NCBI GenBank assembly: GCA_033286805.1
Contig: GCA_033286805.1_4727.1
Reading direction: 5' to 3' (one strand)
Length of the DNA stretch: 64,000 nucleotides
From: a phage
Position numbers and translations under genes: made by a program
Notes under the pieces: generated by a model
Told to the model about the DNA's origin: nothing
What the model saw: the letters and a program-made list of their open reading frames with translations, nothing else
Database searches by the model: none
Part shown: piece by piece, positions 7,476 through 59,932 of the stretch
How the letters are laid out: every line of letters begins with the position of its first letter
How positions within the stretch are numbered: position 1 is the stretch's first letter

Positions 7476-7508
7476 AGCCTGTCCTTCGGGGCAGGCTTTT
7501 ATGCTGTT
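7476..7508 (+). terminator. intrinsic terminator, TTCG-tetraloop family (T1)
   Basis: agcctgtcc-ttcg-gggcaggct then TTTTATGCTGTTA; directly after stop of 6648-7469. Confidence 0.75.
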
Positions 7509-7577
7509 AAATATCAGGAATAAGAATTAACAAAATAGGAAAATGGTGTGAATATAACACAAAGGAGGGAGATGATC

Positions 7578-7694
7578 ATGTTACTCATTTTAATGGAGAG
7601 AGCATTGCTGGCGGGTATCTGCGCATTCTCTGTTAAACACGCTGTTGCTATCATGGCTGAAGAAAGGCGTAATACGCATAATGTATTACGCTGA
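7578..7694 (+). CDS. small hydrophobic peptide (38 aa; MLLILMERALLAGICAFSVKHAVAIMAEERRNTHNVLR)
   Basis: Not in ORF track (<60 aa). Strong SD AAGGAGGG 8 nt upstream of ATG 7578; hydrophobic N-terminal half. Confidence 0.3.
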   Translation: MLLILMERALLAGICAFSVKHAVAIMAEERRNTHNVLR

Positions 7695-7711
7695 AAACAC
7701 TGTGTGCATTA

Positions 7712-8113
7712 GTGTATGACGAGAAATCGTCGAGGCCCCCGTCTTCACGAGGGCCAACACCTATGCATGATTATTCATCGTCTGTTAAACAAAAGGTTAT
7801 AAACATGAGCAATTTGAACGTTGAATTTACTTCAACAACGCCTGTCATGAATGGTGTTGGCACTGAAACCAAAATCGTATTAGAACCCATTCCAGGGTTA
7901 CGCGATCTCGGTGATTTTTATCCACTGATGCCGCGTATACGGAAGGCCTTAAACAGTATCGATCTTGATTCCAATAAAGATTTCCAACACGATACAGAAA
8001 ATACCGATCATGTATTGCTGCCATCAGGGATCGCAAAATTCACCTACACGCAAACATTGAAAGCCTCCGATGGTGAAATCCGTCGTTTTATCGTTGAAGT
8101 AGAAAGCGCATAA
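7712..8113 (+). CDS. hypothetical protein (start uncertain; alternative ATG at 7805)
   Basis: ORF ending just before hairpin 8119-8148; no motif recognised. Confidence 0.45.
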   Translation: MYDEKSSRPPSSRGPTPMHDYSSSVKQKVINMSNLNVEFTSTTPVMNGVGTETKIVLEPIPGLRDLGDFYPLMPRIRKALNSIDLDSNKDFQHDTENTDHVLLPSGIAKFTYTQTLKASDGEIRRFIVEVESA

Positions 8114-8118
8114 AAACC

Positions 8119-8148
8119 ATCCTCCCAACCCGTAAGGGAAGGGAGGAT
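8119..8148. terminator. CCTCC/GGAGG palindromic hairpin (H2)
   Basis: atcctccc-aa-ccc-gtaa-ggg-aa-gggaggat then AAATATGCCGTTA; convergent junction 7712-8113(+)/8167-8796(-); TTTTTAT on minus side. Confidence 0.7.
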
Positions 8149-8166
8149 GAAATATGCCGTTAAACG

Positions 8167-8796
8167 TTATTCAACAAACCCTGCATTCAACAGATTGTCG
8201 TAAACACGATTAGCGACATCAACAGGAGAATGTGTGTTACTGGTATCTATACGCAGCGTTTTCGCGTCGCCGAGATAGTCCATAAAATCCATGTAACGAT
8301 AACGTCGTTTATTGAATGTCGCTTCATCGATGTTATCAAACATCTGATGTTTAGCGTGACGAACACGGAACCGTCTTAAATACGTAGGATAGTCAATATC
8401 CAGATAAACATAGTAAGACGGCATGATAATCGACGGTAGGTTCGGCAACAACGCGTCAAACAGCTTAACGTTGGCATCATTAACCTGGTAAACATACGTC
8501 GAAGCAATCGAACGATCGCTAAGCACAGTTTTCCCTTCGTTAAGGGCTGGATGAATCACCTTGTTGAAGAGATGATTACGTTGCGACATCATCGCCAACA
8601 GCTCGGTTTCCGGATCGAATCTGTTTGTTGGTGTTTGGTCTTCCAGGATAAGTTTACGAATGGCTTCTCCGTAGAGAGTACCACCGGGTTCACGTACGAC
8701 ACAGACATTGTTTAAACGGCTGTGTAAAGACGAGATAACCGAACTCTTTCCTGAATAATCCAAACCTTCAATAACGATATACTTATTACGAGACAT
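8167..8796 (-). CDS. tmk: thymidylate kinase (dTMP kinase)
   Basis: MSRNKYIVIEGLDYSGKSS (P-loop), VVREPGGT, SDRS..YVYQ align with E. coli Tmk MRSKYIVIEGLEGAGKTT / FTREPGGT / GDRHDLSTQAYQ. ATG 8796 with GGAG SD. Confidence 0.9.
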   Translation of the reverse strand: MSRNKYIVIEGLDYSGKSSVISSLHSRLNNVCVVREPGGTLYGEAIRKLILEDQTPTNRFDPETELLAMMSQRNHLFNKVIHPALNEGKTVLSDRSIASTYVYQVNDANVKLFDALLPNLPSIIMPSYYVYLDIDYPTYLRRFRVRHAKHQMFDNIDEATFNKRRYRYMDFMDYLGDAKTLRIDTSNTHSPVDVANRVYDNLLNAGFVE

Positions 8797-8812
8797 TCCC
8801 CGCTCCAATTAA

Positions 8813-9988
8813 CTACTTCGTTTTTGCTGCCAACGGCTGCGATACTGTAATCTCTACCCGATTCTCATCGGTACGTTTAACGATGATAAGGCTGCGTTCA
8901 TCACCGAATGGTTCTGAGATCTTACAAGCCTCTTTAAGATTTTCGAGAATCGAGCCATGGGGTTCAAACACCGCAAAACCGGAACTAGCGTCGATTCTTA
9001 CTAAATATACACGCACATCGTTTACGGTAATGGTGTCATCCGTCTTGAACCCACAGCAGGAGGGTAGATGGAACTGGCCGGGAATACCGGCTACGTATGC
9101 CTCACCACCGAACATTTCTATTAACGTCACCGGTTTAAATGTTTTCTCTGGGAAAGCATTATTAAGAATATCGTTTCCATTCACAAACCAGATCGTTACT
9201 TTATCTTCAGAATACGCTAGTCGGTATGGTTGAGTTGCGGACGCTTGCGCTTTATGCTGGTTAAATAACTTTGATTTTGTCGCAATCACAGCACGGCCTT
9301 GGGCGTCAAAGTACAGAACTTCATACCCAACACATCCGATAAACACGCGACGGTTATTAAGTTCAGGGATTCTGACTACTAACGCATTACCATCTTCCGT
9401 CGGTGTAATACCCCGCAGGATAATCGATTCGTTATTCAATACTGAGTTGTCCACAACGATGCTTCGCATTACCGCTGGGGTTACTGTTTTATCTGCGGTG
9501 GGTTCAGGTTGCTCAGCAATGCGGTCAAAAGGTTCGATGGATACCATGGGAACGAAGTATTCAACGATATGCTTGTTTTCAGCACCAACGTCCATGACGG
9601 TGATCTGCAAACGCGTAGCATCCGAATTCAATGCTTGTTTCACACGTTCTGCATTAGGAGTATCACGGTCAATATGAATCAAGGCTTTTACCACACCGTC
9701 GTCTTCCAACCATCCCGTTAAAACGCGACCGACGATATCATTCACGTCACGAATCGGGAAGCACAGTTCAGCGCCATCGAGCACCGCTTCGATTTTACTG
9801 CTAATGACGGGCACCTTACCGTCGTTAAGATGCGCCAGCAGACCGGTTACTGCACCTTCACTAACCGGATGTTTTGTCGTCGTACTGACCAACGGTACGA
9901 TAAAACGATCTTCGCTGTATTTCTCGACACCACAGATAACCGGGACTTGAGGGCATTGATCAACCAGCCCCCATTCAACAGTATTCAT
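8813..9988 (-). CDS. hypothetical protein (391 aa)
   Basis: Long ORF in DNA-metabolism block; no motif recognised. Confidence 0.6.
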   Translation of the reverse strand: MNTVEWGLVDQCPQVPVICGVEKYSEDRFIVPLVSTTTKHPVSEGAVTGLLAHLNDGKVPVISSKIEAVLDGAELCFPIRDVNDIVGRVLTGWLEDDGVVKALIHIDRDTPNAERVKQALNSDATRLQITVMDVGAENKHIVEYFVPMVSIEPFDRIAEQPEPTADKTVTPAVMRSIVVDNSVLNNESIILRGITPTEDGNALVVRIPELNNRRVFIGCVGYEVLYFDAQGRAVIATKSKLFNQHKAQASATQPYRLAYSEDKVTIWFVNGNDILNNAFPEKTFKPVTLIEMFGGEAYVAGIPGQFHLPSCCGFKTDDTITVNDVRVYLVRIDASSGFAVFEPHGSILENLKEACKISEPFGDERSLIIVKRTDENRVEITVSQPLAAKTK

Positions 9989-10024
9989 AACGTTTTTTTT
10001 CCTTCTTGGGTTTTGTACGAGTTG

Positions 10025-10639
10025 CTAACGGCGTTTTGTACCGACCTTCCCATTTCGATGGTCATCAAGAATACGCCATTCTTCGAACAGGAGTTCAGCG
10101 GCGAAATAACCGACGGCGATGCTGTCTATCGCATGCTCATCAAGATTCGCTAACACAACACCGTTTCTGGGTGTGATGTTCATGAGGTTCAACACTTTCT
10201 GGCGAACATCGTCCTTACCAACACGGGACGTCATAATCCCAACAGCGCGTTTTGCGCTTCGGTTATCAACCCCTAAGAAAGACACCGTAGGGTCAAAATC
10301 GATAACCGTTGTCTGAATCGCTGAAAACAGCTCGCTGAGCGCCATACCGCTTTGCTTGAAACGACCGATGAATGGTGTCTCACAAGCAACCGCTTGCGGC
10401 TGGTACTCTTGCAATAACGTTGTCAGCGAACGACGGTGTTCTTGGATACGTGCGGCACGATTACCGTATCCAAGCGCAATATCACCATCGGGATCATATC
10501 GACGTGAAGCGTGCCATGTCCCTGCATACAGCAGTTCAATATCTTCGACACGCACGTCCAAACGTAGTAACGACGCACCGAGCGTATCGGTGCCAGGGTC
10601 GATTGCCAGAATATCGTAAGCGTATTCTGGTGGGATCAT
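10025..10639 (-). CDS. RuvC-like Holliday junction resolvase
   Basis: ILAIDPGTDTLGASL versus RuvC ILGIDPGSRVTGYGV; AVACETPF (catalytic Glu); DEHAIDSIAVGY versus ADAADALAIAITH. Start ATG 10639 overlaps upstream stop (ATGA). Confidence 0.65.
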   Translation of the reverse strand: MIPPEYAYDILAIDPGTDTLGASLLRLDVRVEDIELLYAGTWHASRRYDPDGDIALGYGNRAARIQEHRRSLTTLLQEYQPQAVACETPFIGRFKQSGMALSELFSAIQTTVIDFDPTVSFLGVDNRSAKRAVGIMTSRVGKDDVRQKVLNLMNITPRNGVVLANLDEHAIDSIAVGYFAAELLFEEWRILDDHRNGKVGTKRR

Positions 10640-11454: not shown

Positions 11455-11469
11455 AAATCCTTATTTATC

Positions 11470-13926: not shown

Positions 13927-14040
13927 GCTATGATAATCCTTCTTCGATACCTTCTGAACCCGTGGTTCAGAATGCGAAGCTGAAGCCATACTTCAGCGTT
14001 ATTTTCTATATCGTTATTTAAATCAGTAGGAGATTACAGC

Positions 14041-15149: not shown

Positions 15150-15183
15150 CCTCCTTCCCTAGCCGTCAAGGCCGGGGAAGGAG
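15150..15183. terminator. CCTCC/GGAGG palindromic hairpin (H3, variant loop)
   Basis: cctccttccc ... gggaaggagg 10-bp stem with inner gcc/ggc stem; A8 tract upstream, T-rich downstream; convergent junction 14041-15129(+)/15200-15589(-). Confidence 0.7.
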
Positions 15184-15199
15184 GATTATAGTTTATTTA

Positions 15200-15589
15200 T
15201 TAACGCGTTGCATTCTGGATGATTTCTTTTCCGATCTTAACCAAAGCGGGTATCTGTACAGCGGTTGCGCCTCGATGACGAAACGCGGTCGTTAACGCGG
15301 TATCGATACTCACCGCACGTCCGTGAAGACGATCGAAATAGACTTGAGTGATTGCGGTAGCGTAATCCTTTCGCTGTTTCTTGGTTTGGCTCAACAGCGC
15401 CGCACTATGACTAACGATGAAGTAAGCGATTAAGAAGAACGCCGCTGACCGCGAACCAGGTAGAAAACCTTGTCGCTTAGGGAGCATCTCACAATCGCGA
15501 ACACTATTATCGTTCGCCAGCTCTTCCATATCAACACAGCATAATTTTGCATAGGTGTGGAGATAGTGGGTAAAAGTTGAATTTAACAT
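15200..15589 (-). CDS. hypothetical protein
   Basis: ATG 15589 with GAGGAAAG SD; last ORF of minus block ending at hairpin 15150-15183. Confidence 0.45.
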   Translation of the reverse strand: MLNSTFTHYLHTYAKLCCVDMEELANDNSVRDCEMLPKRQGFLPGSRSAAFFLIAYFIVSHSAALLSQTKKQRKDYATAITQVYFDRLHGRAVSIDTALTTAFRHRGATAVQIPALVKIGKEIIQNATR

Positions 15590-19233: not shown

Positions 19234-19257
19234 CACTTAGGTAATATAGTCGTGAAA
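19234..19257 (-). promoter_or_regulatory. conserved 24-bp promoter-like box, copy b
   Basis: CACTTAGGTAATATAGTCGTGAAA; 84 nt upstream of ATG of 18368-19150(-). Confidence 0.55.
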
Positions 19258-19963: not shown

Positions 19964-19995
19964 CCTTCCTCCAACCCAACAGGGAAGGAGGAAGG
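19964..19995 (-). terminator. CCTCC/GGAGG palindromic hairpin (H5)
   Basis: ccttcctcc-aa-ccc-aaca-ggg-aa-ggaggaagg, 17 nt downstream of stop of 20012-20905 gene. Confidence 0.7.
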
Positions 19996-20011: not shown

Positions 20012-20905
20012 TTAATCAGCGACGTTATAACCGAATACTGCTTTACCGTAGGTGTGAGTACCGTTAGCTAACGACAGCACCAGCACATGGTTGTACGTAG
20101 CGTTAACGCCCTTGTCAGTAGACTCGGTGGTAGCACCGTTATAGACAAAGGTAGCCGTTTGCAGATTGGCTTTCAGTTCATTGATGATATCATCACTTAC
20201 GCCGGTCTGCTCTTTGATCAGGGTGGTCAGGTTACCTGCTAAGCTTGCATCGATATTTACTTCGTTGCCAGTAATAGCTTGTAAACCTGGAGCGTAAGTA
20301 CTGAAGTCTAACGGATAGGTTAACAGACGTGCTGACGTTTTGGTACCATCGCCTTCATCAACGTAGGTTAAGTTACCCAGGTTGGTAACCTTGATGATGT
20401 TAGCCAGATCCAGCGTGGTGTTATAAACTTTAACTTGAACAGAGCCATACCACGCCAACGAATCTTCTTTGGCTTCCAGGGTGATCGTCTGGATACCTGA
20501 CTGATCAAAGGTAACCTGAGTAGCTAACGTTTCGGCTTTGATGTCTTTCGTTTTATCCAGGAACTTCTCACCGGAAGGCGTGATCATACCGTAGCGTTGA
20601 GCTACAAGGTCAACCACATCACCGATGGTGGTGTTCGCCTCAACGTTAACACGTACAGCGATCTTCTGGAACCACTTAGCCAGATCCAGACGATGGTAGG
20701 TGACATCGCGGTTATTGAAGTAAGGGGTACCTTCACCAGGACTAAGTGTTAAAGTTGCTTCTGGAGCAGAAGGATTCTTTTCTTTAAGGACGTATTTAAG
20801 GTCGGTGTATTTAAAGTTGGCACCAGTGTCGGCGTTGAGCTGGTTAATCTCATCAACGATAAGTTGCCAAGGTGTTTTTAAAGTAAGCGATACTTGAGCT
20901 GTCAT
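20012..20905 (-). CDS. abundant virion protein, paralog family member A
   Basis: Strong codon bias; shares YxNRxDL / LAWYGSV-type blocks with 21048, 31966, 33788, 34650 genes; followed by hairpin 19964-19995. Confidence 0.7.
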   Translation of the reverse strand: MTAQVSLTLKTPWQLIVDEINQLNADTGANFKYTDLKYVLKEKNPSAPEATLTLSPGEGTPYFNNRDVTYHRLDLAKWFQKIAVRVNVEANTTIGDVVDLVAQRYGMITPSGEKFLDKTKDIKAETLATQVTFDQSGIQTITLEAKEDSLAWYGSVQVKVYNTTLDLANIIKVTNLGNLTYVDEGDGTKTSARLLTYPLDFSTYAPGLQAITGNEVNIDASLAGNLTTLIKEQTGVSDDIINELKANLQTATFVYNGATTESTDKGVNATYNHVLVLSLANGTHTYGKAVFGYNVAD

Positions 20906-21792: not shown

Positions 21793-21825
21793 CCCCTCCT
21801 CATCCGTTATTGGGTGAGGAGGGGT
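21793..21825. terminator. CCTCC/GGAGG-type hairpin (H6, divergent)
   Basis: cccctcctca-tcc-gttat-tgg-gtgaggagggg; between 21048-21590(+) and endolysin 21888-22523(-). Confidence 0.55.
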
Positions 21826-31924: not shown

Positions 31925-31956
31925 CCCTCCTCCAACCCGTAAGGGAAGGAGGAGGG
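31925..31956. terminator. CCTCC/GGAGG palindromic hairpin (H7)
   Basis: ccctcctcc-aa-ccc-gtaa-ggg-aa-ggaggaggg then AATATGCTGTTA; convergent junction 30634-31914(+)/31966-32871(-). Confidence 0.75.
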
Positions 31957-40993: not shown

Positions 40994-41033
40994 ACGGATG
41001 TAAAAAAAATAACACATAGTTAACCTTCTCCCC

Positions 41034-41067
41034 AACCCGTAAGGGAAGGGGAGAAGGGCTATGCGCT
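41034..41067. terminator. CCTCC/GGAGG palindromic hairpin (H8)
   Basis: ccttctcccc-aa-ccc-gtaa-ggg-aa-ggggagaagg then GCTATGCGCTAT; A8 tract upstream; convergent junction 38084-40993(+)/41075-41350(-). Confidence 0.7.
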
Positions 41068-43992: not shown

Positions 43993-45792
43993 TCAATCGA
44001 TTATGTCACGATCGTTAATTTCTACAATTTCTTCATCGAATCGACCGACGTCTTTCTTCAAGCCTGCATTGGTTGCTGCAACGTCATTTGCAATTTGTGG
44101 GGTAATGATTAACCGACCACGTTCGTCGATAGGTGCGTACATACTGAACTTTTGACGTCCGGTTGGTTCGGAGTGTGGAAGATTCAGATAGCTTGCACAG
44201 AACGGGATGGAACCACTAACCAAACGACTCTCGTCAGCCAATGCAGCACCGCCTGCGTTTTGGCTCTGGAGAACAACATGCGTGCTCACTTTGAACAGCA
44301 TGCAATCACCCGGTGACTGAATCGATGTTGCCACTTTCTCACGTTTATCACGATTGCTCTGGATATTGAGAATCGCTTCCGTTGCAACTTGATTTCGCAA
44401 CGCCTTCTGCACATCGCGATTGGTCATCTCTTTACGGTTGTTCTGTCGTTTGCCACGTTCTGTGGTTTTAAGATGGAACCCCAGTTTAAAGATGCTTTTA
44501 CGCACATCCTCCATGACATATTCCAACACCATCAATTCCTTACCGAACATCGTCGTGGTGTCAACACGACTCATTTCGATAGTAACATTGTCAATCAGAT
44601 ACGCCATAAATTCGTAGAAGTCGTCGCAAGGAATATTTTCCTGTTTGAACTTCTTCTGTTGAATTTCGTCAACGTAAAGATCGAGACTGTCGATGTGGTG
44701 GTTTACATCACGCAACAAACGCGCATCCGCATTGTTGTTATTAAAGATAATCAAACCGAGTAATGTACGCCAATGGTCTGGCGCATTTGCGAACTCCTCA
44801 ACCGGATAGTCTTCCGGAAAACGATCGTAATAACGGTCGATGAGATATAGGAACGCACCGACAAGGCCAAGAACAATACGTTCCGTGCCTCCACGTCTTA
44901 CAGCAATTTGAATATCAGGATGTTTGTAACGTACAGCGCTAGCGCTACGGCTTTTACCGCTTTTGCTGATACTAAAGCCTTTAGGAATAACCCCCATGGT
45001 GCGATAGATTACCCATTGGTCACGCGGAAAATCACGTTCAGCAAGGTTCCGTCCGGTTACGGCTTCGACACCTGCAAAACGTCGGAAACACTCACCCACC
45101 CCGTACTTCGCAAAGAGATAGTGACCCAGTGTGGTTACGCTGGTGTGGTTGATGTTGTCACCGTTCACTTTACTTTGTTTGGTAAGATGATAGATTTGCG
45201 ACCAGGGTAATGACAGGTAATGACGATAATCGATACCGGTCGGTGTATCATTGCTCAGGAACTGATACGGTGTACGTTTAACCGTGATTTTATCACGCGG
45301 AAGCATGATGAACGCCATGTCTTTCGTGTAACTGATTACGGGGTCAGCGAGTACCGCACTGAGAATGAAGTTCGCACCACGTAGACGCATTTTACCACCC
45401 TGACCTACCGCGGGTAATAGGAGAGGATGTCGGATAATGCAGTAGTCCTTTCCGGGTTCACGACGGTCGCCTGATTCCATCGCGCCGTACCAGCGGAATT
45501 CCAGCATCACCATAAACACATCGGAAGGCGCAAGGTCGAAGGTCAGCTTACCGCTATCCTTCCCTTTGGTTTTCTTTCCTCCGCTTAAGTAGTGGAACTG
45601 TTCGCGGGCCATACAGCGACGCAGGCCATGATACACCAGATCCTTAGGTAAACTATCTTTGCTGTTCCGCCAAAGACGATCAACATAGGACTCAACATCT
45701 TGCATCTTATCGACGACGATGTTGCGTGCTATCTTCTCGTTCATCTTCGGTGCAAGCTCAGCGACAGCTTTGCAGAATCTAGGATCCATCAC
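43993..45792 (-). CDS. hypothetical protein (599 aa)
   Basis: Long ORF on dominant strand; no motif recognised. Confidence 0.6.
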   Translation of the reverse strand: MMDPRFCKAVAELAPKMNEKIARNIVVDKMQDVESYVDRLWRNSKDSLPKDLVYHGLRRCMAREQFHYLSGGKKTKGKDSGKLTFDLAPSDVFMVMLEFRWYGAMESGDRREPGKDYCIIRHPLLLPAVGQGGKMRLRGANFILSAVLADPVISYTKDMAFIMLPRDKITVKRTPYQFLSNDTPTGIDYRHYLSLPWSQIYHLTKQSKVNGDNINHTSVTTLGHYLFAKYGVGECFRRFAGVEAVTGRNLAERDFPRDQWVIYRTMGVIPKGFSISKSGKSRSASAVRYKHPDIQIAVRRGGTERIVLGLVGAFLYLIDRYYDRFPEDYPVEEFANAPDHWRTLLGLIIFNNNNADARLLRDVNHHIDSLDLYVDEIQQKKFKQENIPCDDFYEFMAYLIDNVTIEMSRVDTTTMFGKELMVLEYVMEDVRKSIFKLGFHLKTTERGKRQNNRKEMTNRDVQKALRNQVATEAILNIQSNRDKREKVATSIQSPGDCMLFKVSTHVVLQSQNAGGAALADESRLVSGSIPFCASYLNLPHSEPTGRQKFSMYAPIDERGRLIITPQIANDVAATNAGLKKDVGRFDEEIVEINDRDIID

Positions 45793-45828: not shown

Positions 45829-47271
45829 TTACTTTTTCGATGACGCTTTCTCAAGAATCTTGAAAAAGGTCATACCTATACCGACAACAGCCGCGGTTAT
45901 GCTTGCAGCGGCTTTCCAAACATCGACGTTACGTTGACGTCGCGCTTCTTCCGCTTCACGTTGTCTTTTTGCCTCTTCATCACGTCGACGTATCTCAGCA
46001 GCAAACTCGTCGTGCTTACGTTTGGATTCTTCGTCTCGACGACGAAGTTCAGCGACGAATTCTTCATGTTTGCGTTTAGCCTCGTCATCACGACGTTTTA
46101 AATCAGCTTGATAATCTTCGTGTATTTGTTTACGTAGATCATCTTGACGCTTCATTTCGGCTTGGTGTTGTTCCATCCTACGTTTTTGTTCGTCTTTAAG
46201 CTGATCGAGTTCGGCTTTATGTTGTTCATCACGCAGCTTTGCGTCGGCGCGATGCGCCTCATGCATCTGTGCGATAACTGCCTTGTGTTCATCCGCCATA
46301 CGTCGCATTTCAGCCATCACCCCTTTAAGGGTTTCTTCTGATGCCTTACGTTCGTAGCTACGTTGGTCGAAATCATTTTTGTAGGCTTCTTTTTGGATGG
46401 GGTCGCGCCAATGTAATGCCGATTCACGTGTCGGAAAAACATTGTACTTCCACATCTCTTTTTCCAAATCTTCGACCGGTACGAAGATGGAGTCATTATT
46501 ACCGAAGGTAACCAACATACCTGGCGCACCTGCTCCATTCGTTGGTTTTATTTCGAACGCTTTCCCCAGCACGTTAACCCATAAGCTATACGGATTATGA
46601 AAGTCGGGTGGCGTCCAATGGATAGTGAGTTGCGTTCCGAGAATCCGGAAACCCTCTGTTTTTCCCGTCAAGCTCCGCGCGCACGTTGCGATGTAGGGGT
46701 GATCAATCCCTTTCGTAACGTGGTCTGCGCTTTTGTATTCTCCTTTAACTTTTACGATTGCCACGTTGATTTGCGCGACATAAGCGGGTTGATTAAAGTT
46801 CAGCGTGTTGAGGTCAATTTGACATATTTCATCCAGCGTATCGTACCAGTCTTGCTGGTCTAATAGACGCGGCATTTTCTCTGTGTTAACAATACGACGG
46901 ATATGCGGTTTCCTTATCGCGTAACCTGTGCCGTTTTTAACACGGAGTATATCCCGACGTCTACCCGCGTAGACGAAGTTTCTGAATGCACCATTCGCAT
47001 TAGATACGTCATGGCTGTCAACTATTACAGGACTACGAAATTTTGAACGTCGTACGATCCTGAATGTATTGCCGTCCTCAACCCTACCAGGAATGTACTG
47101 GAACATATTGTCGGAGGTGATAACCAACACGGTATGGCCAGATTCATTAATACATGCCCATCCTAATTCCAGGTCATATAACGGTTCGGCATAACCGTCA
47201 ATGCGATATGCGTGCGTACCATCCCACGGTTCGAACGCGGTATCACATATTGGCATGGAGGGCATCGTCAA
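45829..47271 (-). CDS. membrane-anchored protein with tandem charged 18-aa repeats and C-terminal TM helix
   Basis: First ORF after promoter box 47416-47439; C-terminal repeats RRRDEE[AS]KRKH[ED]EF[AV]AE[IL] then TM segment ITAAVVGIGMTFF. Confidence 0.6.
   Translation of the reverse strand: MTMPSMPICDTAFEPWDGTHAYRIDGYAEPLYDLELGWACINESGHTVLVITSDNMFQYIPGRVEDGNTFRIVRRSKFRSPVIVDSHDVSNANGAFRNFVYAGRRRDILRVKNGTGYAIRKPHIRRIVNTEKMPRLLDQQDWYDTLDEICQIDLNTLNFNQPAYVAQINVAIVKVKGEYKSADHVTKGIDHPYIATCARSLTGKTEGFRILGTQLTIHWTPPDFHNPYSLWVNVLGKAFEIKPTNGAGAPGMLVTFGNNDSIFVPVEDLEKEMWKYNVFPTRESALHWRDPIQKEAYKNDFDQRSYERKASEETLKGVMAEMRRMADEHKAVIAQMHEAHRADAKLRDEQHKAELDQLKDEQKRRMEQHQAEMKRQDDLRKQIHEDYQADLKRRDDEAKRKHEEFVAELRRRDEESKRKHDEFAAEIRRRDEEAKRQREAEEARRQRNVDVWKAAASITAAVVGIGMTFFKILEKASSKK
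45940..46110 (-). repeat. coding tandem repeat (~54 bp x 3) encoding RRRDEE[AS]KRKH[ED]EF[AV]AE[IL]
   Basis: Repeated DNA units ...cgacgacgaagttcagcgacgaattcttcatgtttgcgttt... within 45829-47271. Confidence 0.6.
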
Positions 47272-47473: not shown

Positions 47474-47503
47474 CCTCCCCCAACCCTTACGGGCTGAGGG
47501 AGG
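47474..47503 (-). terminator. CCTCC/GGAGG-type hairpin (H9)
   Basis: cctccccc-aa-ccc-ttac-ggg-ct-gagggagg; ~100 nt downstream of 740-aa gene stop and 35 nt upstream of promoter box 47416-47439. Confidence 0.65.
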
Positions 47504-47602: not shown

Positions 47603-49825
47603 TCAGTTAGTCTGAACCGGCAGCTTGATGTTTTCAGTGTAGACCTTACGCAGGTTCACAACGTTAATCAGACCCAGCAGCGGGCAGTTGTTAACGAAGC
47701 GGCAGCGCGGCTGAACCATGGTTTCTTTAGAAACCTGACCGTTACGGGTAACCTGAGCAACAGATACCAGTTCCGGTACATACAGGAACATACCGAAGGT
47801 CAGCGGATCCGGAGAACCCTGGATACCACGAGACAGGGTCACGAAGATCTTATCGCGCAGCATGACGTTCGGGTTATCTACAACCACGAAGTTGAAGCTT
47901 ACACCAACGGTACGGAAATCGCCATCGGTCTGCAGGAACTGCGGGATGTAGTTGTCAGTTGCTACTACGCAACGCGGTTTCTCATCAGCGTTGGAAGACA
48001 GCAGCTGCAGAGCTGGCTGATAACCAGACTCAGAGTACATGCGGTATGCCATTTCACGAATCACGTTCATGATCGCAGCAGACACTTCAGCACGACGTTC
48101 TGCGGTGGTGGTACCCTGAACAGATTTCTCCAGGTCCAGGTTGATTTCTTCGAACCACGGACGGATCAGGTAACGACCGAAACCTTCGATCTGGATGTCA
48201 CCGAACTGACGGAAGCGAGAGGTCGCAACCGCTTTCAGTGCGTCTTTGTAGCTGAACAGTTTCTCAACCATCAGGTTGTCGAAACGTGCGTTAGCAGCTT
48301 GGATCAGAACGTCCAGGTCAGCAGCGTTTTCTTCCCAATCCAGCGGACGAGGAATGGAGAACGGAGCCAGCAGGCCGATTGCGTAACGTTCTTGCTTCAT
48401 GTTGAAGTCAAGGTGCTTACCGCGCTCACGACGGTTGCTGTTGTTACGGCGGATACGCAGTTCGTAACCAACCAGTTTGAAGCTCAGGTCTTCAGCCAGT
48501 TGTTTGAACTCTTCGCTCTTACGCGGTTGTTCGATGTTGTCCTGATCAACCAGGCGATACAGTTCAGCGTTAGCGCCGTTAACACGCAGACCCGCTTTCT
48601 CTACGTTGGAAGAACCGTAAACTTCGATCGCCAGCTGAGCAGCAGATTTCGCATCGATGATGTCCTGCAGCGCTTCAGCTTTCGCACCTTTAACGTCTTT
48701 GGTGTTCTCATCAACGAAGATGGAGTGAGTGTCGAACGCCAGGGTCATTTTGCGGAAGTCGCCTTCCAGGGATTTCTGGAAACCGTTGGTGATCAGACCA
48801 GATACGTCGAACGGTACGTAAGAGGTTTTGCTGTGCTTGGTAGATTTGATTTCCACCAGGATTTTGGTCAGCGTGATCTGGGCGTCCAGCGCGTCGGTGT
48901 TGTCGCTGTAACCGTTAGCCAGGATGCTATCGTCTTCAGCGATACCGATCATGTCGATCAGTTTATCAACAGCCAGGTAAGACGTTTTATAAGTTACGCC
49001 TTTAATTTCGATGTCACGCGGAGCAACGATAGTTTTGTCAACGAAGTACTGCGCGTTAGCATCGTCAGCACGATAGATCGGATGCAGATCGGTCACGTCG
49101 TTGGACAGAACGTCGTTGTACATGAACGCATCCAGCAGCGGACGACGTACCCAATCAGCCGGAGTACCGTCAGCGTTACGACGCAGGTGGTTGAACACCA
49201 GCGGACGACGGAAAGATACATCATAACCGATCTGGTTCGGAGCCAGAACGATGGTGTTGTACAGTTCGTTACCCATGCGGCTCAGACGAGAAGCCTTCAC
49301 GTTGAACACAACGGAGTACGGCATCATGTCACGCAGTTCTTTCTGGTCGTAGGACAGCTGAACCAGTTCTTCAGATTCGCAACCGCAGGAATCAGCAGCC
49401 ATCATGACGAAGTTAGAGCTATCGACTTCACGGCCAGACGGAGTGGTGCTGATGTTCATGGAACGTGCTTGTTTAGCATATTCCACCGGGTTGCCATGAG
49501 CCAGCATGATCAGTGCTGCTGCACGAGCCTGCTGTGCGTTCATGGTGAACAGCTGTTCTTCAATACGCTGCTTCTCTTCCGGAGTGGTGGTTTCGAAGCC
49601 CAGCATGGACAGAACCGGTTCTTCGGCTTTACGGATGTCGCTGCTGAAGCTCTTAACATCCATTTCGTTAACCAGTTTGTCCATGGATTTGAAATCAACC
49701 TTAGAAGCAGATTCCATAGACAGGAAGGTGTTCTCCAGACCTTTGTCTGCTGGTTTGCTACCATTAGCGGTCAGGAACTGGCGAGTGGCCGCGACCTGTT
49801 GGCTAAGAAGGGTTTTATCATTCAT
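47603..49825 (-). CDS. major virion structural protein (740 aa); major capsid or tail sheath candidate
   Basis: Strongest codon bias in window (CTG, CCG, CGT, GGT, AAC, TTC preferred); antisense frame stop-free for 766 codons; followed by hairpin 47474-47503. Confidence 0.75.
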   Translation of the reverse strand: MNDKTLLSQQVAATRQFLTANGSKPADKGLENTFLSMESASKVDFKSMDKLVNEMDVKSFSSDIRKAEEPVLSMLGFETTTPEEKQRIEEQLFTMNAQQARAAALIMLAHGNPVEYAKQARSMNISTTPSGREVDSSNFVMMAADSCGCESEELVQLSYDQKELRDMMPYSVVFNVKASRLSRMGNELYNTIVLAPNQIGYDVSFRRPLVFNHLRRNADGTPADWVRRPLLDAFMYNDVLSNDVTDLHPIYRADDANAQYFVDKTIVAPRDIEIKGVTYKTSYLAVDKLIDMIGIAEDDSILANGYSDNTDALDAQITLTKILVEIKSTKHSKTSYVPFDVSGLITNGFQKSLEGDFRKMTLAFDTHSIFVDENTKDVKGAKAEALQDIIDAKSAAQLAIEVYGSSNVEKAGLRVNGANAELYRLVDQDNIEQPRKSEEFKQLAEDLSFKLVGYELRIRRNNSNRRERGKHLDFNMKQERYAIGLLAPFSIPRPLDWEENAADLDVLIQAANARFDNLMVEKLFSYKDALKAVATSRFRQFGDIQIEGFGRYLIRPWFEEINLDLEKSVQGTTTAERRAEVSAAIMNVIREMAYRMYSESGYQPALQLLSSNADEKPRCVVATDNYIPQFLQTDGDFRTVGVSFNFVVVDNPNVMLRDKIFVTLSRGIQGSPDPLTFGMFLYVPELVSVAQVTRNGQVSKETMVQPRCRFVNNCPLLGLINVVNLRKVYTENIKLPVQTN

Positions 49826-52270: not shown

Positions 52271-52302
52271 CCCTCCTCCAACCCGTAAGGGAAGGAGGAG
52301 GG
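52271..52302. terminator. CCTCC/GGAGG palindromic hairpin (H10)
   Basis: ccctcctcc-aa-ccc-gtaa-ggg-aa-ggaggaggg then GTTATGACCG; A9 tract upstream; convergent junction 50635-52245(+)/52319-52645(-). Confidence 0.75.
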
Positions 52303-53954: not shown

Positions 53955-53987
53955 ACCCTCTCCCAACCCAGCAGGGAAGGGAGAGGG
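53955..53987 (-). terminator. CCTCC/GGAGG-type hairpin (H11)
   Basis: ccctctccc-aa-ccc-agca-ggg-aa-gggagaggg; just downstream of 53994-54626 gene and 35 nt upstream of promoter box 53897-53920. Confidence 0.65.
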
Positions 53988-53993
53988 AATATA

Positions 53994-54626
53994 TCACCAA
54001 TGATCGAAGGAACCAGGAGTGTTACGAACGATCTCAACTTGGAAGGTTATTGGTACTGATGGCAATGAAACATATTCGCGTTGCGATAGCAGGACGTTGT
54101 CTTCTCGCTCATCGATGCGAGTAGAACCCGTCAGAAATTGGAACATAGCGACTTGAAGCTCATCGGTGAAACGGAGGTACTCACCGATGTGTGGTGTTGC
54201 ATCATATCGAATAAGTACGTTGCCAAACCGTCGTGCGATATTTGGAGTATCTGTGAACGAAACAGGGAAATCCAAAGTCATTCCCATCGTTTCACCTGGC
54301 TTCATTTTCCGAATCGACGCAATTGGCGCGTCGAAGATATTCCATTCTTCTTTCATCGTGTCTGGAAACACACCGCGATACAAGATGGTCTTTTGATGAC
54401 GATGAACGGGTTGTAAACGGTCAACCAATATTTTCAAAGGTTTAAGTTCTTCAGCCAATTCATAATCTGCTTGGATGTTCCACTTTGCCGCAAGTTCCAT
54501 TAGGTTGGGATACGCGCTATATTTATTGACGATAGCCCAGTTAACATTACGCAAATCGATAGGAAGGAATTTGATAATTTCCTTGTTGAATATCCATTGG
54601 TTTAATTTCTTAATCTTCGAAAGCAT
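53994..54626 (-). CDS. hypothetical protein (210 aa); weak R-S-ExE ADP-ribosyltransferase-like pattern
   Basis: Start set at ATG 54626 (track start would overlap upstream gene). Motifs ILYRGV, VSFTDT, DEREDN in ART-like order; assignment speculative. Confidence 0.45.
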   Translation of the reverse strand: MLSKIKKLNQWIFNKEIIKFLPIDLRNVNWAIVNKYSAYPNLMELAAKWNIQADYELAEELKPLKILVDRLQPVHRHQKTILYRGVFPDTMKEEWNIFDAPIASIRKMKPGETMGMTLDFPVSFTDTPNIARRFGNVLIRYDATPHIGEYLRFTDELQVAMFQFLTGSTRIDEREDNVLLSQREYVSLPSVPITFQVEIVRNTPGSFDHW

Positions 54627-54642
54627 GATGTACTCACTACAG

Positions 54643-56010
54643 CTAAACGGTTGGACGAACGGTGTTGTCTTTTTCTGGTGCAAGCCATAACGTGACCGTA
54701 CCATGACATGTCCACTGTGGCTCACGTACAGAAGAACCTGCCATCGTAACAGCACAATCGGTACGCATGATAACCCCGTATGCTTCGCAGAGATTGTTAT
54801 CCTGCATCCACACAACTTTAGCAGGCATGCCGGGATACAACAAATCCATGTTTGCGTATTCCCACACCAACTGCATTGTTCTACCGCGTAATCCAGCAGT
54901 ATTGCTTAATTCACGCCATCGGTTATCGGTTACGCGTCCCATCCCTTTCGCCACCTTCACGTTATCGCTACGTTCTTCAGTTACGTACTCGCTAACGTTT
55001 ACGGTACGACTGATTATCGTATCACCCCCTTTTGATAATGTCATTCCCTGACTCATCTGACTTGCCGAAACAAAACGCCCGCCCGCATTACCTAACAACG
55101 AAGCCGCGTTATTGATGTCGCTTACCGACGCCCCTCTCGTACAGGCAATTTCCACGTATTTGTCACGATTGATCCAGGTCTTGTCCATGCCCGGAAACAT
55201 ATCGGCAGGATAGTTGTAAAAGATAGCCGTGCGCCGACCGTCAGAGAAACGGGTTTCGTCATAGAGAGGATAAATATACAGATACGGAGATTGGTAATAA
55301 CAACCGACATCCGCTGAATAAATACCGACCTGGTTCTGGATTTTGTCTACGAGATCCATTGCGTTGGTACCGTGCGGAAGAATAAGCAACTTGAACAGGT
55401 TGTCGTTATTCGGTGCAACAATATCCACACCCTGCATTTTGAATCCGGTGTCGGCTTCAACCGCAGAAAGTATTTTGCTGAATTCGAGCCGTAACACATC
55501 CAGAACTTTCGACCCGGTATAGTTTTCACCGGTTTCTGATTGCATGAAGCTTTCAAGAACAGGATCGAACAGTTGAAATTGAAGATCGACCATTTGCTCG
55601 TAGTCTTTCTTCGAAGAATCGGTTGCGGTACGTTCGTCGGTAGCAGACATACGACTGTCTACGGTTGTTAAACAAACCGCTCGGTAGACGTAAGCTTGTG
55701 CGGCATCGTCTACGGTTTGGCGTTGTCCGCGCATCAGGCTGTACGCCTGCACGATGATGCGCATTTTAAGTTGTTGTTGGTATGGTAGAATGTATTTTCC
55801 GTAACTGCCCGGTGGGAACTTTACAGAAATATAAAGTTCATCCCCTGCGTTACGTTCATAGTCTCGATACGTGTGGACTTGAGTCACTAAAGGAACAGAC
55901 ACCGTCATTGACGGCGTGATTAATTCCGCGGTGACTTTATACGCAACAGCAACTGCTTCCTGCGCAAATGTACCGATATACCGTCCTAACGGCGTCTGTT
56001 TGTAATCCAT
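54643..56010 (-). CDS. hypothetical structural protein (455 aa)
   Basis: Long ORF in tightly packed minus block. Confidence 0.6.
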   Translation of the reverse strand: MDYKQTPLGRYIGTFAQEAVAVAYKVTAELITPSMTVSVPLVTQVHTYRDYERNAGDELYISVKFPPGSYGKYILPYQQQLKMRIIVQAYSLMRGQRQTVDDAAQAYVYRAVCLTTVDSRMSATDERTATDSSKKDYEQMVDLQFQLFDPVLESFMQSETGENYTGSKVLDVLRLEFSKILSAVEADTGFKMQGVDIVAPNNDNLFKLLILPHGTNAMDLVDKIQNQVGIYSADVGCYYQSPYLYIYPLYDETRFSDGRRTAIFYNYPADMFPGMDKTWINRDKYVEIACTRGASVSDINNAASLLGNAGGRFVSASQMSQGMTLSKGGDTIISRTVNVSEYVTEERSDNVKVAKGMGRVTDNRWRELSNTAGLRGRTMQLVWEYANMDLLYPGMPAKVVWMQDNNLCEAYGVIMRTDCAVTMAGSSVREPQWTCHGTVTLWLAPEKDNTVRPTV

Positions 56011-56012
56011 GT

Positions 56013-56618
56013 TTAACGACCCCGTTGCTGTTGTTGAATGATGAATTCTTCGATCTTCGTACCACGGAATTCGCTGTGACGAACTGCTTGCAGTTGCTCT
56101 TCAACGGTTGGGCCTGCATTGAGACCACCACGACGTGCGCGGTTGATGCCGATTTTACGACGCTGGCCGATTTCACGTAAACGTGAAGATAATCCGCTCA
56201 TTTCGGTTGGGTCTTTAATGCGACCGCGTGCAACGTTCCACAGACCACCCATGAACTCTTCGAGAATACGACTGGCTTCGAGAGACGGTACGCGTGCGTT
56301 AGGATCGTTTTCGAGATTGTATTTAACGTATTCCGTGTGTTCCAGAAGAAGCATGAACATCTTCATGGCGTTCACGTCAGGATTTGCAATACGCATAGGA
56401 ACACCACGAGAATGTTTTTCAGCAGCCTGCGGTACGGTAAGCTGTGCGGGCACCTCTTCGTTCATGGCCATATCGTCGATTTCTGCAACCCCTGAAGAGT
56501 AGACGCCGCTGACCTCATTGGTGTAATTGTCCACCATGAATTTACGGGGAATCCAGAATTCGAATTTACGTTCAAATAGACGTTTGGTTGGGGTATCTTT
56601 AACGTGTTGTAGACTCAT
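56013..56618 (-). CDS. hypothetical protein (201 aa)
   Basis: Overlaps upstream gene by 4 nt. Confidence 0.55.
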   Translation of the reverse strand: MSLQHVKDTPTKRLFERKFEFWIPRKFMVDNYTNEVSGVYSSGVAEIDDMAMNEEVPAQLTVPQAAEKHSRGVPMRIANPDVNAMKMFMLLLEHTEYVKYNLENDPNARVPSLEASRILEEFMGGLWNVARGRIKDPTEMSGLSSRLREIGQRRKIGINRARRGGLNAGPTVEEQLQAVRHSEFRGTKIEEFIIQQQQRGR

Positions 56619-57931
56619 GGTTCAATAGCTCCTGCTCGTAACAGCATAATAACGAACGGTGTGAAATAATAACGATCTAGCGGAGAAAGCAACGGTATTG
56701 CGTCAACCATCTGTTTCAGTGCCGGATGGCTGATCGCTTTCTCATCGACCATATCACGTACCATACTCTCAATAATCGTCATTGGGGCTTGATTGCGGTA
56801 GAAAGCCTCTGTGAAAACATAGTACGGATCGTCCGCTACAGATGGAAACAACGGAACGCCGTCATACTCCATCGATGTAAGGTTGGTCACCAACGGGTTT
56901 GTCGGTGGTGTGTTTTCAGGTACAGCCAACTCTTTACCGACGTCTTCACCGAGCGATGTGGTCGCAGGCCACATACAGAATCGCGCCCCGCTAAAACGAA
57001 TCCCACCTGCAGCCGGGTACTGATAGAAACGCTTTGTTGACAACAGTGTGAATTTCACCGTCAACCGCGCCTCGTCTTCCCGACGTCCGTCCATGACCCA
57101 TTCAAAGACAGAAATCGCGTTCGCTTCCTGGTTATCATCTACGTTAAGGCGTCCGAAGTTCCAAGACGGTTTTCCTTCAAGCGACGACCATAATTTCGTA
57201 AACGCGTTAACACACCAGGGATCGTAGGTTGCAGCATCCTGACCAGGAACAAGCAGTGTGTTGAGTTCACGGCTGTAGAATTCATGGTAATACGCGTGAC
57301 AAAGTCCTAGTGCACGACGGAGATAATCATACTTACGATTGTATTTCTCCGTTGCCATTACGGGATGTTTTCCGTGCTTTAACTGGTCTTGGTCGTATAG
57401 CGTATCCTCAACGATTTTTGCTTCCAGTTCGATAAGCTGTTTTTCGTCAAGAATACGTTGGAAGGAAATGTCGCATTCGTAAGCCGGTGCTAAGCTGATG
57501 TTCTTCGGCGTGATTCGGGTGATTGTGTACACCGCGATACGATGATCGAGACCGGAGATTAACAGCATGTTACCTAAAAGAGGAACCGATACCGCCGGAA
57601 GTATACACGTACCCTCGGATTGAAAACGTGCGGTACCGTTGTCGTACGACGGCGTCAATGACGACATTAACTTGATAGGGTAATGTCTGATGCGACGGTA
57701 CTGCTGTTCAGCGATGTCTCGGTTAGCTTGAAAACTGCTTTGTTCATCATCGCGACCGAGAATCTGTTCGTAATAATCACATTCTACGGAATAACCGGAT
57801 GCGTAATTCACTAACCCGATTTGACTATTGTATTGCTCATCCACCACCGCAGAACGATAAACGTCGTCGCGAGCCTTCGCGGGTTGTTGGGGGTTGATGA
57901 TGGGTTTCGCGGGCTTCTTAGCGAGCGCCAT
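56615..57931 (-). CDS. hypothetical structural protein (438 aa)
   Basis: Long ORF in minus block; no motif recognised. Confidence 0.6.
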   Translation of the reverse strand: MALAKKPAKPIINPQQPAKARDDVYRSAVVDEQYNSQIGLVNYASGYSVECDYYEQILGRDDEQSSFQANRDIAEQQYRRIRHYPIKLMSSLTPSYDNGTARFQSEGTCILPAVSVPLLGNMLLISGLDHRIAVYTITRITPKNISLAPAYECDISFQRILDEKQLIELEAKIVEDTLYDQDQLKHGKHPVMATEKYNRKYDYLRRALGLCHAYYHEFYSRELNTLLVPGQDAATYDPWCVNAFTKLWSSLEGKPSWNFGRLNVDDNQEANAISVFEWVMDGRREDEARLTVKFTLLSTKRFYQYPAAGGIRFSGARFCMWPATTSLGEDVGKELAVPENTPPTNPLVTNLTSMEYDGVPLFPSVADDPYYVFTEAFYRNQAPMTIIESMVRDMVDEKAISHPALKQMVDAIPLLSPLDRYYFTPFVIMLLRAGAIEP

Positions 57932-59510
57932 AGCGTTTCACTCCTACGATGGTACCGACAAGAATTCTCGGTACAAATAAACTACGATGTTTGAACCACG
58001 AAGCGGTTGTTGGGATACGTTTGATGGCTTCGATAAGCCCGATTAGCGTATAGCACCCCCGACTGTTCTTTTTAGGCCAGTACTTTTTATCTAAACCTAA
58101 TACCGCAAACAGTTCATCCACCAGATTGGGATAACAACACAACGCTTCAAGTGTTTCAACCTGTAACTGACTTAAATCTAACAGTATCGCTAGACGAACG
58201 TGGTAATCACTCCGTAAGTCTAACGGATCTTTCGCTTCAAGATCACCAACGTCGGTTAATGTCCACGCGTCTCTTGCGTAGCGGTATTTGCCCTTCCAAA
58301 CCTCAAGGAAAAAAGGAGATTGGTAATGACATTTTGACCATTCTGGGTACTCGCGGAACCACCGAACAAGATCGGGATGGAATTCACCTTCTTCGGCTAA
58401 CGAGTCCAACGTCACCAATAGGTTAGGTTGTTCAGGATCGATAGCGAGCAGCGCGGTGAAAAGCGTGCTTGATGGAAGCTCGGTCTCTACGCTCGATGGA
58501 GGCAGCCATTCATCCAGATCAGGATACCGATACGCTTGAATCGATGCACCCTGTTCCGGCAAGAACGAATCACGAAGAATGTCCTGATACTGCACCACCA
58601 TACCGCCACGACGTGCACGGGATTTATCGCGCACTGAGAGGCTCGGTTTGTAAAGGTACTCTTCGGGGAGTATCTGTTGGTGTACTTGAACCGGATACCG
58701 TGCTACGATGTGTGTTGGCGTGTCGTACGTGTAACGGTAAGAGAAGGTTGCGTTGTACGAAGAACTGTTCTCATTCTTCTCTGGCTTCGGAGCGTCGGTG
58801 AAATCAAATTGACCAGAGATCTCTTCTTGCATTTCCCTGATAACCAATTTAACGCTCTTACCGTCACCTGCAACTGTCGTCATGGTGGTTGCGCGGTTGT
58901 CGAACCCGTCTCTAAGGTATTCGCTGAACTTAACCCCGTAACCCGCTATTGCTTCTCGGTGTGTGTGGATAACTTTTAACAACATGAGAAACTGTGTTGG
59001 GATCGCATAGCTGTATTCAGCGCTAAGGAAGGCAGCGACGTGCTGACTTGTCAGCAAACGTTTCATGTCGTACCACCAACGTTCGGCAGTGACCTGATCT
59101 TCGAACCGTTTGGTGATCTGCATGGTCGCGACCATCGTACTGTAAACAGGTACTAGCGATACGCCAAGGTTACGGTCTTCAAATACGGGAAGACTGTTTC
59201 GTTTGTAAACGGTATCGTACATAGAGGCCTGTTCTTCAGGGACAATATTAAGCTCAATTTGGATAAACCCGTCAGCAGGCCCTTTCACATCCTGATCAAC
59301 AACTTGCGGTGGTTGCTCGTTCGCAGCACTCATTTTAGCGTGAAGAGCTTCCCCTCGAAAAAGAATGTTCTCCCGACTATAATCCCACCCGCAAAGCTCG
59401 CTGATCTGCCGTAACACCGCGATTGCAACCGGACGTGTTACCGTCGCGTATACGTCATTGATTTTTCGATCAAGTTTAGGCATCGATGTCGTCCTCGCTA
59501 ATTTCCTCAC
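57918..59510 (-). CDS. hypothetical structural protein (530 aa)
   Basis: Long ORF in minus block; no motif recognised. Confidence 0.6.
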   Translation of the reverse strand: MRKLARTTSMPKLDRKINDVYATVTRPVAIAVLRQISELCGWDYSRENILFRGEALHAKMSAANEQPPQVVDQDVKGPADGFIQIELNIVPEEQASMYDTVYKRNSLPVFEDRNLGVSLVPVYSTMVATMQITKRFEDQVTAERWWYDMKRLLTSQHVAAFLSAEYSYAIPTQFLMLLKVIHTHREAIAGYGVKFSEYLRDGFDNRATTMTTVAGDGKSVKLVIREMQEEISGQFDFTDAPKPEKNENSSSYNATFSYRYTYDTPTHIVARYPVQVHQQILPEEYLYKPSLSVRDKSRARRGGMVVQYQDILRDSFLPEQGASIQAYRYPDLDEWLPPSSVETELPSSTLFTALLAIDPEQPNLLVTLDSLAEEGEFHPDLVRWFREYPEWSKCHYQSPFFLEVWKGKYRYARDAWTLTDVGDLEAKDPLDLRSDYHVRLAILLDLSQLQVETLEALCCYPNLVDELFAVLGLDKKYWPKKNSRGCYTLIGLIEAIKRIPTTASWFKHRSLFVPRILVGTIVGVKRYGAR

Positions 59511-59859
59511 CTCCTTGTTGTCGATATCCGGTATAATGAATCAGACTGCTCTGTAGAAGCTCTTTAACGAGCCCTAGACGCGTTTTATCTGTTTCATTGG
59601 ACGTTTCCATTAATGTTTCTATTTCGTTGTTTAAAACAGCGTATAGCGCTTCTAACGGCAATCCTTGGATGATTGGTTTGTTGGTACCTTCCGGTAGTGC
59701 CGCAACAGGAATCTGCACGACGGTTTCATGTGAGGTATGTGGGTTGATACGGCAAATATACATACCGGGTACTGAATGTCGCGGGCACGCCGCTACCAAG
59801 CATGTCTGTTGCTGCGCACCGTTAAGTGCGAGTGAAAGAAATTTTGCTTCACGTGTCAT
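59476..59859 (-). CDS. hypothetical protein (127 aa)
   Basis: ORF overlapping downstream gene start by 35 nt; real start may be internal. Confidence 0.4.
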   Translation of the reverse strand: MTREAKFLSLALNGAQQQTCLVAACPRHSVPGMYICRINPHTSHETVVQIPVAALPEGTNKPIIQGLPLEALYAVLNNEIETLMETSNETDKTRLGLVKELLQSSLIHYTGYRQQGGEEISEDDIDA

Positions 59860-59904
59860 CGCAGATTCCTGTTTGAAAGATAAGATATCACATGATGGTC
59901 GACA

Positions 59905-59932
59905 GCATAAAGCCCACCCCGAAGGGCGGGCT
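59905..59932 (-). terminator. intrinsic terminator, TTCG-tetraloop family (T2)
   Basis: Minus strand agcccgccc-ttcg-gggtgggct then TTTATGCTGTCG; 16 nt downstream of stop of 1128-aa gene; homologous to T1. Confidence 0.75.

Follow-up and report, generated by a model that had tools for sequence, protein, structure and literature searches.

Two short hairpins with a TTCG loop, located in the 64,000-nucleotide (nt) stretch of phage DNA analysed here (GenBank assembly GCA_033286805.1, contig GCA_033286805.1_4727.1; termed the window), are probably factor-independent transcription terminators of the phiKZ type that act on phage multisubunit RNA polymerases. They are termed site 1 (7476-7509, plus strand) and site 2 (59900-59940, minus strand). 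Judged by sequence, both sites are members of a published kind of terminator, and every feature of it that can be tested is present. In each, a C-rich 5′ arm and a G-rich 3′ arm form a GC-rich hairpin around a short loop; each has the tail TTATKYYGT 1-3 nt past the stem; and each is intergenic, just 3′ of a co-oriented gene, as are the other members of the family described below. The elements of the two sites and the adjoining open reading frames (ORFs) are as follows.

7476-7497, plus strand: site 1 hairpin agcctgtcc-ttcg-gggcaggct, a 9-bp stem with one G.U pair and a cUUCGg tetraloop
7498-7509, plus strand: site 1 tail tttatgctgtta / TTTATGCTGTTA, with the 8-mer TATGCTGT at 7500-7507
6630-7469, plus strand: ORF for a hypothetical protein, homologue of Goslar_00005; the upstream gene, whose transcript site 1 would end
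59932-59911, minus strand: site 2 hairpin agcccgccc-ttcg-gggtgggct, a 9-bp stem with one G.U pair and a cUUCGg tetraloop
59910-59900, minus strand: site 2 tail TTATGCTGTCG (ttatgctgtcg), with the 8-mer TATGCTGT at 59909-59902
59935-59940, minus strand: GCATAA, upstream of site 2, base-paired to the TTATGC of the tail with a 2-nt bulge in between
59948-63334, minus strand: ORF of 1128 amino acids (aa), homologue of Goslar_00053; the upstream gene, whose transcript site 2 would end
59476-59859, minus strand: co-oriented gene downstream of site 2

The window shares 97% identity with the Escherichia phage vB_EcoM_Goslar. This jumbo phage of 237 kb is phiKZ-like and belongs to the nucleus-forming family Chimalliviridae (chimallivirus). 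The window is therefore from a chimallivirus with its own multisubunit RNA polymerases, as is also seen from a homologue of the non-virion polymerase subunit GP123 at 43993-45792. It differs from phiKZ in being of the Goslarvirus type with an E. coli host, and the shared polymerase subunit is only ~24% identical. Both hairpins are annotated as "putative transcriptional terminator" in the Goslar GenBank record, at positions 3508-3527 (site 1) and 55080-55101 (site 2), where an ARNold-type prediction selected them. The terminator call at the two sites is thus not new, since it is already in the record of the closest relative. Only 18 terminators are annotated in that record, and many members of the family are absent from the annotation.

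The initial annotation of this DNA, made from the sequence alone, had described the two hairpins as one element present twice, and both are present with the stem and loop sequences that it gave. The tails were also read correctly, except for one T too many in each, as the closing T of the stem had been counted twice. Its placement of the hairpins directly behind stop codons of co-oriented genes holds: the site 1 hairpin begins 6 nt past the TAA codon (7467-7469) of ORF 6630-7469, and the site 2 hairpin begins 15 nt past the TAA codon (59950-59948) of ORF 59948-63334.

The RNA of site 1 has a predicted folding energy of −18.0 kcal/mol (z = −3.4) in the sense orientation and −11.4 in the antisense orientation; the values for site 2 are −27.2 (z = −4.8) and −23.1. 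Antisense folding is the weaker at both sites because the opposite strand carries an A/C mismatch where the sense strand has its G.U pair. The presence of one G.U pair per stem, together with the better sense fold, favours a strand-specific function at the level of RNA rather than of duplex DNA. The stronger sense fold of site 2 arises because GCAUAA (59940-59935) also pairs with the UUAUGC of the tail. This pairing extends the stem, and the opposite strand gains a hairpin of its own followed by TTTATGCGT, a bidirectional design.

The stems of the two sites differ at 4 of 18 positions and pairing is kept in all four, as had been noted. From site 1 to site 2, T5-A18 becomes C5-G18 (a compensatory change), T7.G16 becomes C7-G16, and G6-C17 becomes the wobble pair G6.T17. 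These are differences between paralogous copies and not orthologous covariation. The sequence TTATGCTGT is common to both tails without a mismatch. A degenerate 30-mer that describes the pair has no match in 100 shuffles. The similarity of the pair is more than chance, because of this absence of shuffle matches and because both sites are significant against an independently built model (see below). It may nevertheless have its origin in constraints on the family rather than in a private duplication, since phiKZ carries a near-identical GCCCTCCC-ttcg-GGGAGGGC-TTTATGTTGT. The view of the pair as the same element is therefore correct for the shared structure and tail, but the two are members of a larger family and not a private pair.

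A third copy of the site 1 element was found outside of the window, at Goslar positions 180588-180607 (minus strand). It shares 32 identical nt with site 1 (TCGAGCCTGTCCTTCGGGGCAGGCTTTTATGC) and has unrelated flanks. From the sequences, this suggests that terminator cassettes are copied or gene-converted within the genome.

In phiKZ, 61 intrinsic terminators were mapped by ONT-cappable-seq, with the motif 5′-BCCYCCCCHWWDGGGRRGGBYTTATKYYGT-3′, in which a hairpin precedes a TTAT region (Putzeys et al. 2024, PMC10914365). Phage 201phi2-1 has a motif that strongly resembles that of phiKZ, with RNA 3′-end data and 15 bidirectional terminators (Poppeliers et al. 2024, PMC11512511). Site 2 agrees with the published phiKZ consensus at 27 of 30 positions in an ungapped comparison, a level that has no match in 100 shuffles of the window; site 1 agrees at 26 of 30 when one extra T is allowed (read by eye). 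An example in the phiKZ genome, GGCCCTCCC-ttcg-GGGAGGGC-TTTATGTTGT, lies past the major head gene.

A covariance model was built from 10 phiKZ terminators only and was used to search the window with filters off. MAFFT alignments of members with mixed geometry put the stems out of register, hence an ungapped phiKZ alignment was used for the model. Site 2 (59933-59900, minus strand) is the best match in the window (36.0 bits, E = 1.2e-6) and site 1 (7475-7509, plus strand) is second (27.8 bits, E = 1.2e-4), with a set of longer hairpins containing GGAGG next. The best match in 100 kb of control sequence from T4 and SPN3US is 18 bits. The model gives 16 matches at E < 0.05 in Goslar.

The likeness to the phiKZ motif includes the hairpin composition, the tetraloop, the 1-3 nt spacer, the tail TTATGYYGT, the position after genes and the bidirectional copies between convergent genes. 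The difference is that most of the Goslar copies are of the longer GGAGG type with an inner 3-bp helix. By the description in the 201phi2-1 paper, these long hairpins parallel the elongated A/B hairpins among its motifs A and A/B. Canonical Rho-independent terminators share with the family a GC-rich hairpin that has a U-rich segment immediately behind it, and an upstream A-rich complement that makes some copies bidirectional. They differ in the tail, which here is a conserved UUAUGCYGU with only 3-4 consecutive U residues and a preference for G after UAU. A search of Rfam 15 at the gathering score gave no matches in the whole window, and no family exists there for these elements.

The family has about 12 hairpins in the window and about 40 in the Goslar genome. 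The stem sequences vary, but (Y)TATGYYGT begins 1-5 nt 3′ of the stem across the family. The proposal that the TTCG sites and the GGAGG hairpins have a common tail is correct, and it is borne out across the genome. Both kinds belong to one family, with the short, phiKZ-like form at the two TTCG sites and a longer form in the GGAGG hairpins. Several Goslar-annotated terminators also have unrelated stems and the common tail, e.g. TTTATGCCGT, TTCATGCTGT and TTTTTTATGCCGT. The GGAGG hairpins display CTTATGCTGT on one strand and TTATG on the other. At sites between convergent genes, CATAA-hairpin-TTATG is present on both strands, which is the layout of a bidirectional terminator. Members of the family other than sites 1 and 2 are listed here.

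3967-3998, both strands: GGAGG type, past the plus-strand ORF that ends at 3960; tails TTATGCCGT (plus; TATGCCGT at 4000-4007) and AATATGTTA (minus); model E = 1.3e-3
8118-8149, both strands: GGAGG type between convergent genes; tails AAATATGCCGT (plus) and GTTTTTATGCGC (minus)
15150-15184, both strands: member between convergent genes; variant tails ATTATAGT (plus) and TTGTATAGC (minus), with TATA for TATG
19964-19995, minus strand: member past ORF 20012-20905; tail TTTATGTTTGTG
21793-21824, both strands: GGAGG type between convergent genes; variant tail TCTTATACGTC (plus)
31925-31956, both strands: member between convergent genes; tails AATATGCTGTTATGC (plus) and TTATGTTTGG (minus); model E = 7e-3
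41024-41057, both strands: member between convergent genes; tails GCTATGCGCT (plus) and TTAACTATGTG (minus)
47474-47503, minus strand: member past the major capsid gene (47603-49825); tail TTTCTATGCCGT
52271-52302, both strands: member between convergent genes; tail GTTATGACCGC (plus) and a plain T-run (minus)
53956-53987, minus strand: member past ORF 53994-54815; tail TTCTATGCTGT; a match of the phiKZ covariance model

The association of tail and hairpin is pronounced. TATGCYGT is found 10 times in the window, where 3.7 copies are expected, and 7 of the 10 are directly behind a strong hairpin. The three copies that have no hairpin are about the number given by chance, in view of these counts. 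A hairpin of −15 kcal/mol or stronger precedes TATGCYGT in 49% of cases in Goslar and in 70% in the window, compared with 1% of random positions and 0-4% of scrambled motifs. When strong hairpins past a co-oriented stop codon are considered, TATG starts no more than ~11 nt from the stem in 34 of 61 (background 3%). The offset of TATG from the last G-C pair has a sharp peak at 2-3 nt. The base that follows TAT is G in 38 of 54 cases, which is unexpected for a plain U-tract. In 200 kb of phiKZ, TATG is found behind 66 of 168 perfect-hairpin orientations.

In the proposed mechanism, a GC-rich hairpin would form in the nascent RNA, with C residues prevailing in the 5′ arm, G residues in the 3′ arm, and UUCG as the cap. 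The short conserved tail (U)UUAUGCYGU would stand in for the usual long U-tract, and transcription would end within or just past the tail. Site 1 would end the transcript of the Goslar_00005 homologue, and site 2 would set the 1128-aa gene apart from the block of virion genes that follows it. By analogy with the 3′-end mapping in phiKZ and 201phi2-1, RNA ends would be made at these two sites and phage polymerases would stop there. The terminator interpretation of the initial annotation is supported by this mapped motif, by the Goslar annotation and by the position after co-oriented stop codons.

Several points weigh against this interpretation. A transcriptome with RNA 3′ ends for Goslar-like phages was not found in the literature searched. 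Counted from the last G-C pair, the tails UUUUAUGC and UUUAUGCU each have 5 U residues in 8 nt, with only 3-4 in a row, and a scan for U-tract terminators did not list either site, although the predictor used by the Goslar annotators did. 3′-end sequencing as done in phiKZ does not wholly distinguish a terminated RNA from one processed back to a hairpin that protects it. TATG, the core of the tail, also serves as initiator of the phiKZ late promoter, and part of the conservation could come from this second function. Lastly, covariance across relatives had been proposed as a check of the structure, and the orthologous copies were compared among four Goslar-like genomes (the window and three others in IMG/VR). 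The 110 nt around site 2 are 100% invariant. At site 1 the T-run is 4 or 5 long and the remaining hairpin and tail are invariant, and 5 variable columns are found in the 12 nt that separate the stop codon from the hairpin. The invariance of the hairpins fits a constraint, but it provides no covariation.

The late promoter of phiKZ is T(−3)ATG(+1) with the start at G; this sequence is necessary, and recognition also needs downstream sequence (PMC4666361). It matches the core of the tail, and a simple late promoter was considered as the main role of the tail. This was rejected, as the tail is equally frequent where no downstream gene is present and the hairpin-less copies are at about the chance level. 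Both sites have TATG with a co-oriented gene downstream, but, among strong hairpins past a co-oriented gene, the tail is found behind 21 of 35 that lack such a downstream gene and behind 13 of 26 that have one; it is independent of what follows. The terminator role is favoured over the promoter role for this reason. A composite element is compatible with the terminator interpretation and is possible, although on the unlikely side: the hairpin would stop the upstream transcript, and the TATG of the tail would be a late promoter at which the non-virion polymerase starts at G for the next gene. In its favour, a co-oriented gene with a ribosome-binding site lies 47-76 nt downstream of both sites, and this phage has kept the pocket of the polymerase that binds TATG. 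In addition, 3 of ~20 hairpin-less TATGCYGT sequences in Goslar (51817, 125911 and 197102) lie 24-48 nt before a co-oriented start codon, where ~0.5-0.8 would be expected by chance (our estimate). Against it, 7 of 19 Goslar hairpin+TATGCYGT sites lie between convergent genes, where such a promoter would be directed antisense into the facing gene. The fixed hairpin spacing of 1-5 nt fits a termination element better than an independent promoter, and no upstream hairpin was found at the phiKZ late promoter P119L. A combination of this general kind is seen in the promoter-early stem-loop (PeSL) cassettes of T4-type phages, where a short repeated terminator-like stem-loop and a promoter lie between genes of a large lytic phage. 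PeSL cassettes have a sigma-70-type promoter used by the host polymerase and a different sequence, and this is a resemblance only.

Transcription might instead read through, with the hairpins only protecting 3′ ends that arise by exonuclease trimming or by endonuclease cleavage at the tail. The conserved non-U sequence 3′ of the hairpin could be a cleavage site, and the 3′-end sequencing by which the family was defined does not alone distinguish processing from termination. Such a role is improbable for the sites described here: of eight 201phi2-1 terminators placed in a two-reporter terminator trap in vivo, four surpassed the lambda T0 control and two equalled it (PMC11512511). The U-rich segment follows the hairpin at once, which is the geometry of an intrinsic terminator, and it was on prediction of the ARNold type that the sites were picked. 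It is still less probable that the elements act as DNA-level palindromes (REP- or MITE-like elements, recombination cassettes or protein-binding sites) whose position after genes is secondary. Many near-identical copies are present in the genome, and the third copy of site 1 with its unrelated flanks could be read in this way, but with its G.U pairs the sense RNA forms a better structure than either DNA or antisense RNA, the orientation of the tail follows the upstream gene, and the stems differ widely while the structure is kept. Chance resemblance between two unrelated GC-rich hairpins is refuted by the analysis. A match of 18 of 22 positions is, by itself, not rare among all sequence pairs in 64 kb (our estimate), but the tail is exact, the context is shared, the consensus and the degenerate pattern for the pair have no matches in shuffled sequence, hairpins are enriched at the tail motif, and both sites are the top matches of the independent covariance model.

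Hairpin-less TATGCYGT sequences at 56641-56648 and 15536-15543 of the window (both minus strand), and at Goslar 197102 and 125911 (both minus strand), are 24-48 nt ahead of co-oriented start codons. The copy at 56648 is 30 nt ahead of the start of ORF 56013-56618. Such copies near start codons may be true promoters of the TATG type, with an extended 8-mer identical to that of the terminator tails.

The GP123 homologue, a beta-like subunit of the non-virion RNA polymerase, is encoded at 43993-45792 (minus strand) of the window (tblastn E = 1e-53, 24% identity to phiKZ GP123). In the Goslar record it is annotated only as a hypothetical protein. Goslar_00231 and Goslar_00078 were also considered as the GP123 homologue and are wrong, as tblastn places the gene at 43993-45792. 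A structure reported in 2026 shows that phiKZ GP123 binds the non-template bases T-3 A-2 T-1 G+1 in a dedicated pocket (PMC12809450). Of the 14 pocket residues, 6 (S144, F151, K158, H331, S334 and Q466) are invariant across six chimallivirus genera, compared with 30 of 543 residues overall (P = 4e-5). The four core bases of the phiKZ late promoter are those of the tail core, and the GP123 homologue in the window keeps the pocket residues; the late promoter differs in that it needs no hairpin, whereas the tail occurs also where no gene follows.

A hairpin followed by TTATGC(Y)G is also found in Klebsiella phage Eowyn, Erwinia phage RAY and Serratia phage PCH45. Vibrio phage Aphrodite1 has a weaker tail signal, and in Salmonella phage SPN3US (first 50 kb) the tails are plain TTTTATTTTT instead. 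No hairpin+TATG-tail signal was found in the scan of T4.

As a tentative and rather doubtful idea, the tail may be read by the polymerase itself. The elongating non-virion enzyme would take up the non-template TATG in the beta-lobe pocket of GP123 and pause 5-7 nt past the hairpin, where a short U-run would then suffice; re-initiation at G might be possible in tandem arrays. Consistent with this are the identity of the tail core with the late-promoter core, the preference for G after UAU, the invariant pocket residues, and the retention of the tail in chimalliviruses of Pseudomonas, Escherichia, Klebsiella, Erwinia and Serratia, whose polymerase subunits are 19-32% identical. Other observations speak against it. 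The phiKZ consensus allows T at the G position, and SPN3US is without the tail motif in the segment scanned. TATG is not avoided in a strand-specific manner inside genes, the observed/expected ratio being 0.64 for TATG and likewise for CATA, its complement. In uninfected P. chlororaphis, several 201phi2-1 terminators were functional as well (PMC11512511). The literature searched yielded no paper in which the terminator tail is connected with TATG as the promoter core.

Some further loci in the window should be mentioned. The window spans the start of the Goslar record, and 3967-4063 corresponds to the arbitrary ends of this circularly permuted record. In this region a run of 13 A residues (4013-4025) has a strong hairpin on either side (3967-3998 and 4031-4063), and the hairpin at 4031-4063 has, on the minus strand, a classical long T-run instead of a TATG tail. 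A weak hairpin, AAGCTGA...TCGGCTT, followed by TATGTTGT, is located at 46198-46225 (plus strand), antisense within ORF 45829-47271. It scores 14 bits with the phiKZ model (E = 0.3) and could be an antisense terminator or a chance match. Goslar-annotated terminators at 5807-5834 (minus strand) and 13979-13997 (plus strand) have a different common tail, (C)TATATCGTT. The second of these may not be a terminator at all, since its surroundings are a divergent promoter region and no co-oriented gene precedes it.

A separate motif, TTTCACGGCTATATTACTTAAGTG (core TATATTAC), is located between divergent genes and is directed toward the minus-strand genes. It is found in the window at 6527-6539 and 19239-19251 (both minus strand), and in the Goslar divergent regions from 2528, 142744, 172898 and 226596. 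The motif resembles the AT-rich early (virion polymerase) promoter of phiKZ, and may mark early promoters of Goslar-like phages.

As a discovery the terminators are modest, for the element class and its motif have been published for phiKZ and 201phi2-1, and the sole non-trivial lead is the overlap of the terminator tail with the late-promoter core. The hairpin+TATGYYGT element would mark the ends of transcription units in Goslar-like phages, and can be used for operon maps of this E. coli model of a nucleus-forming phage. The presence of the same tail in chimallivirus genera that have almost no nucleotide similarity suggests that their multisubunit polymerases need a specific termination sequence. 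This tail overlaps TATG, the only known determinant of late promoters.

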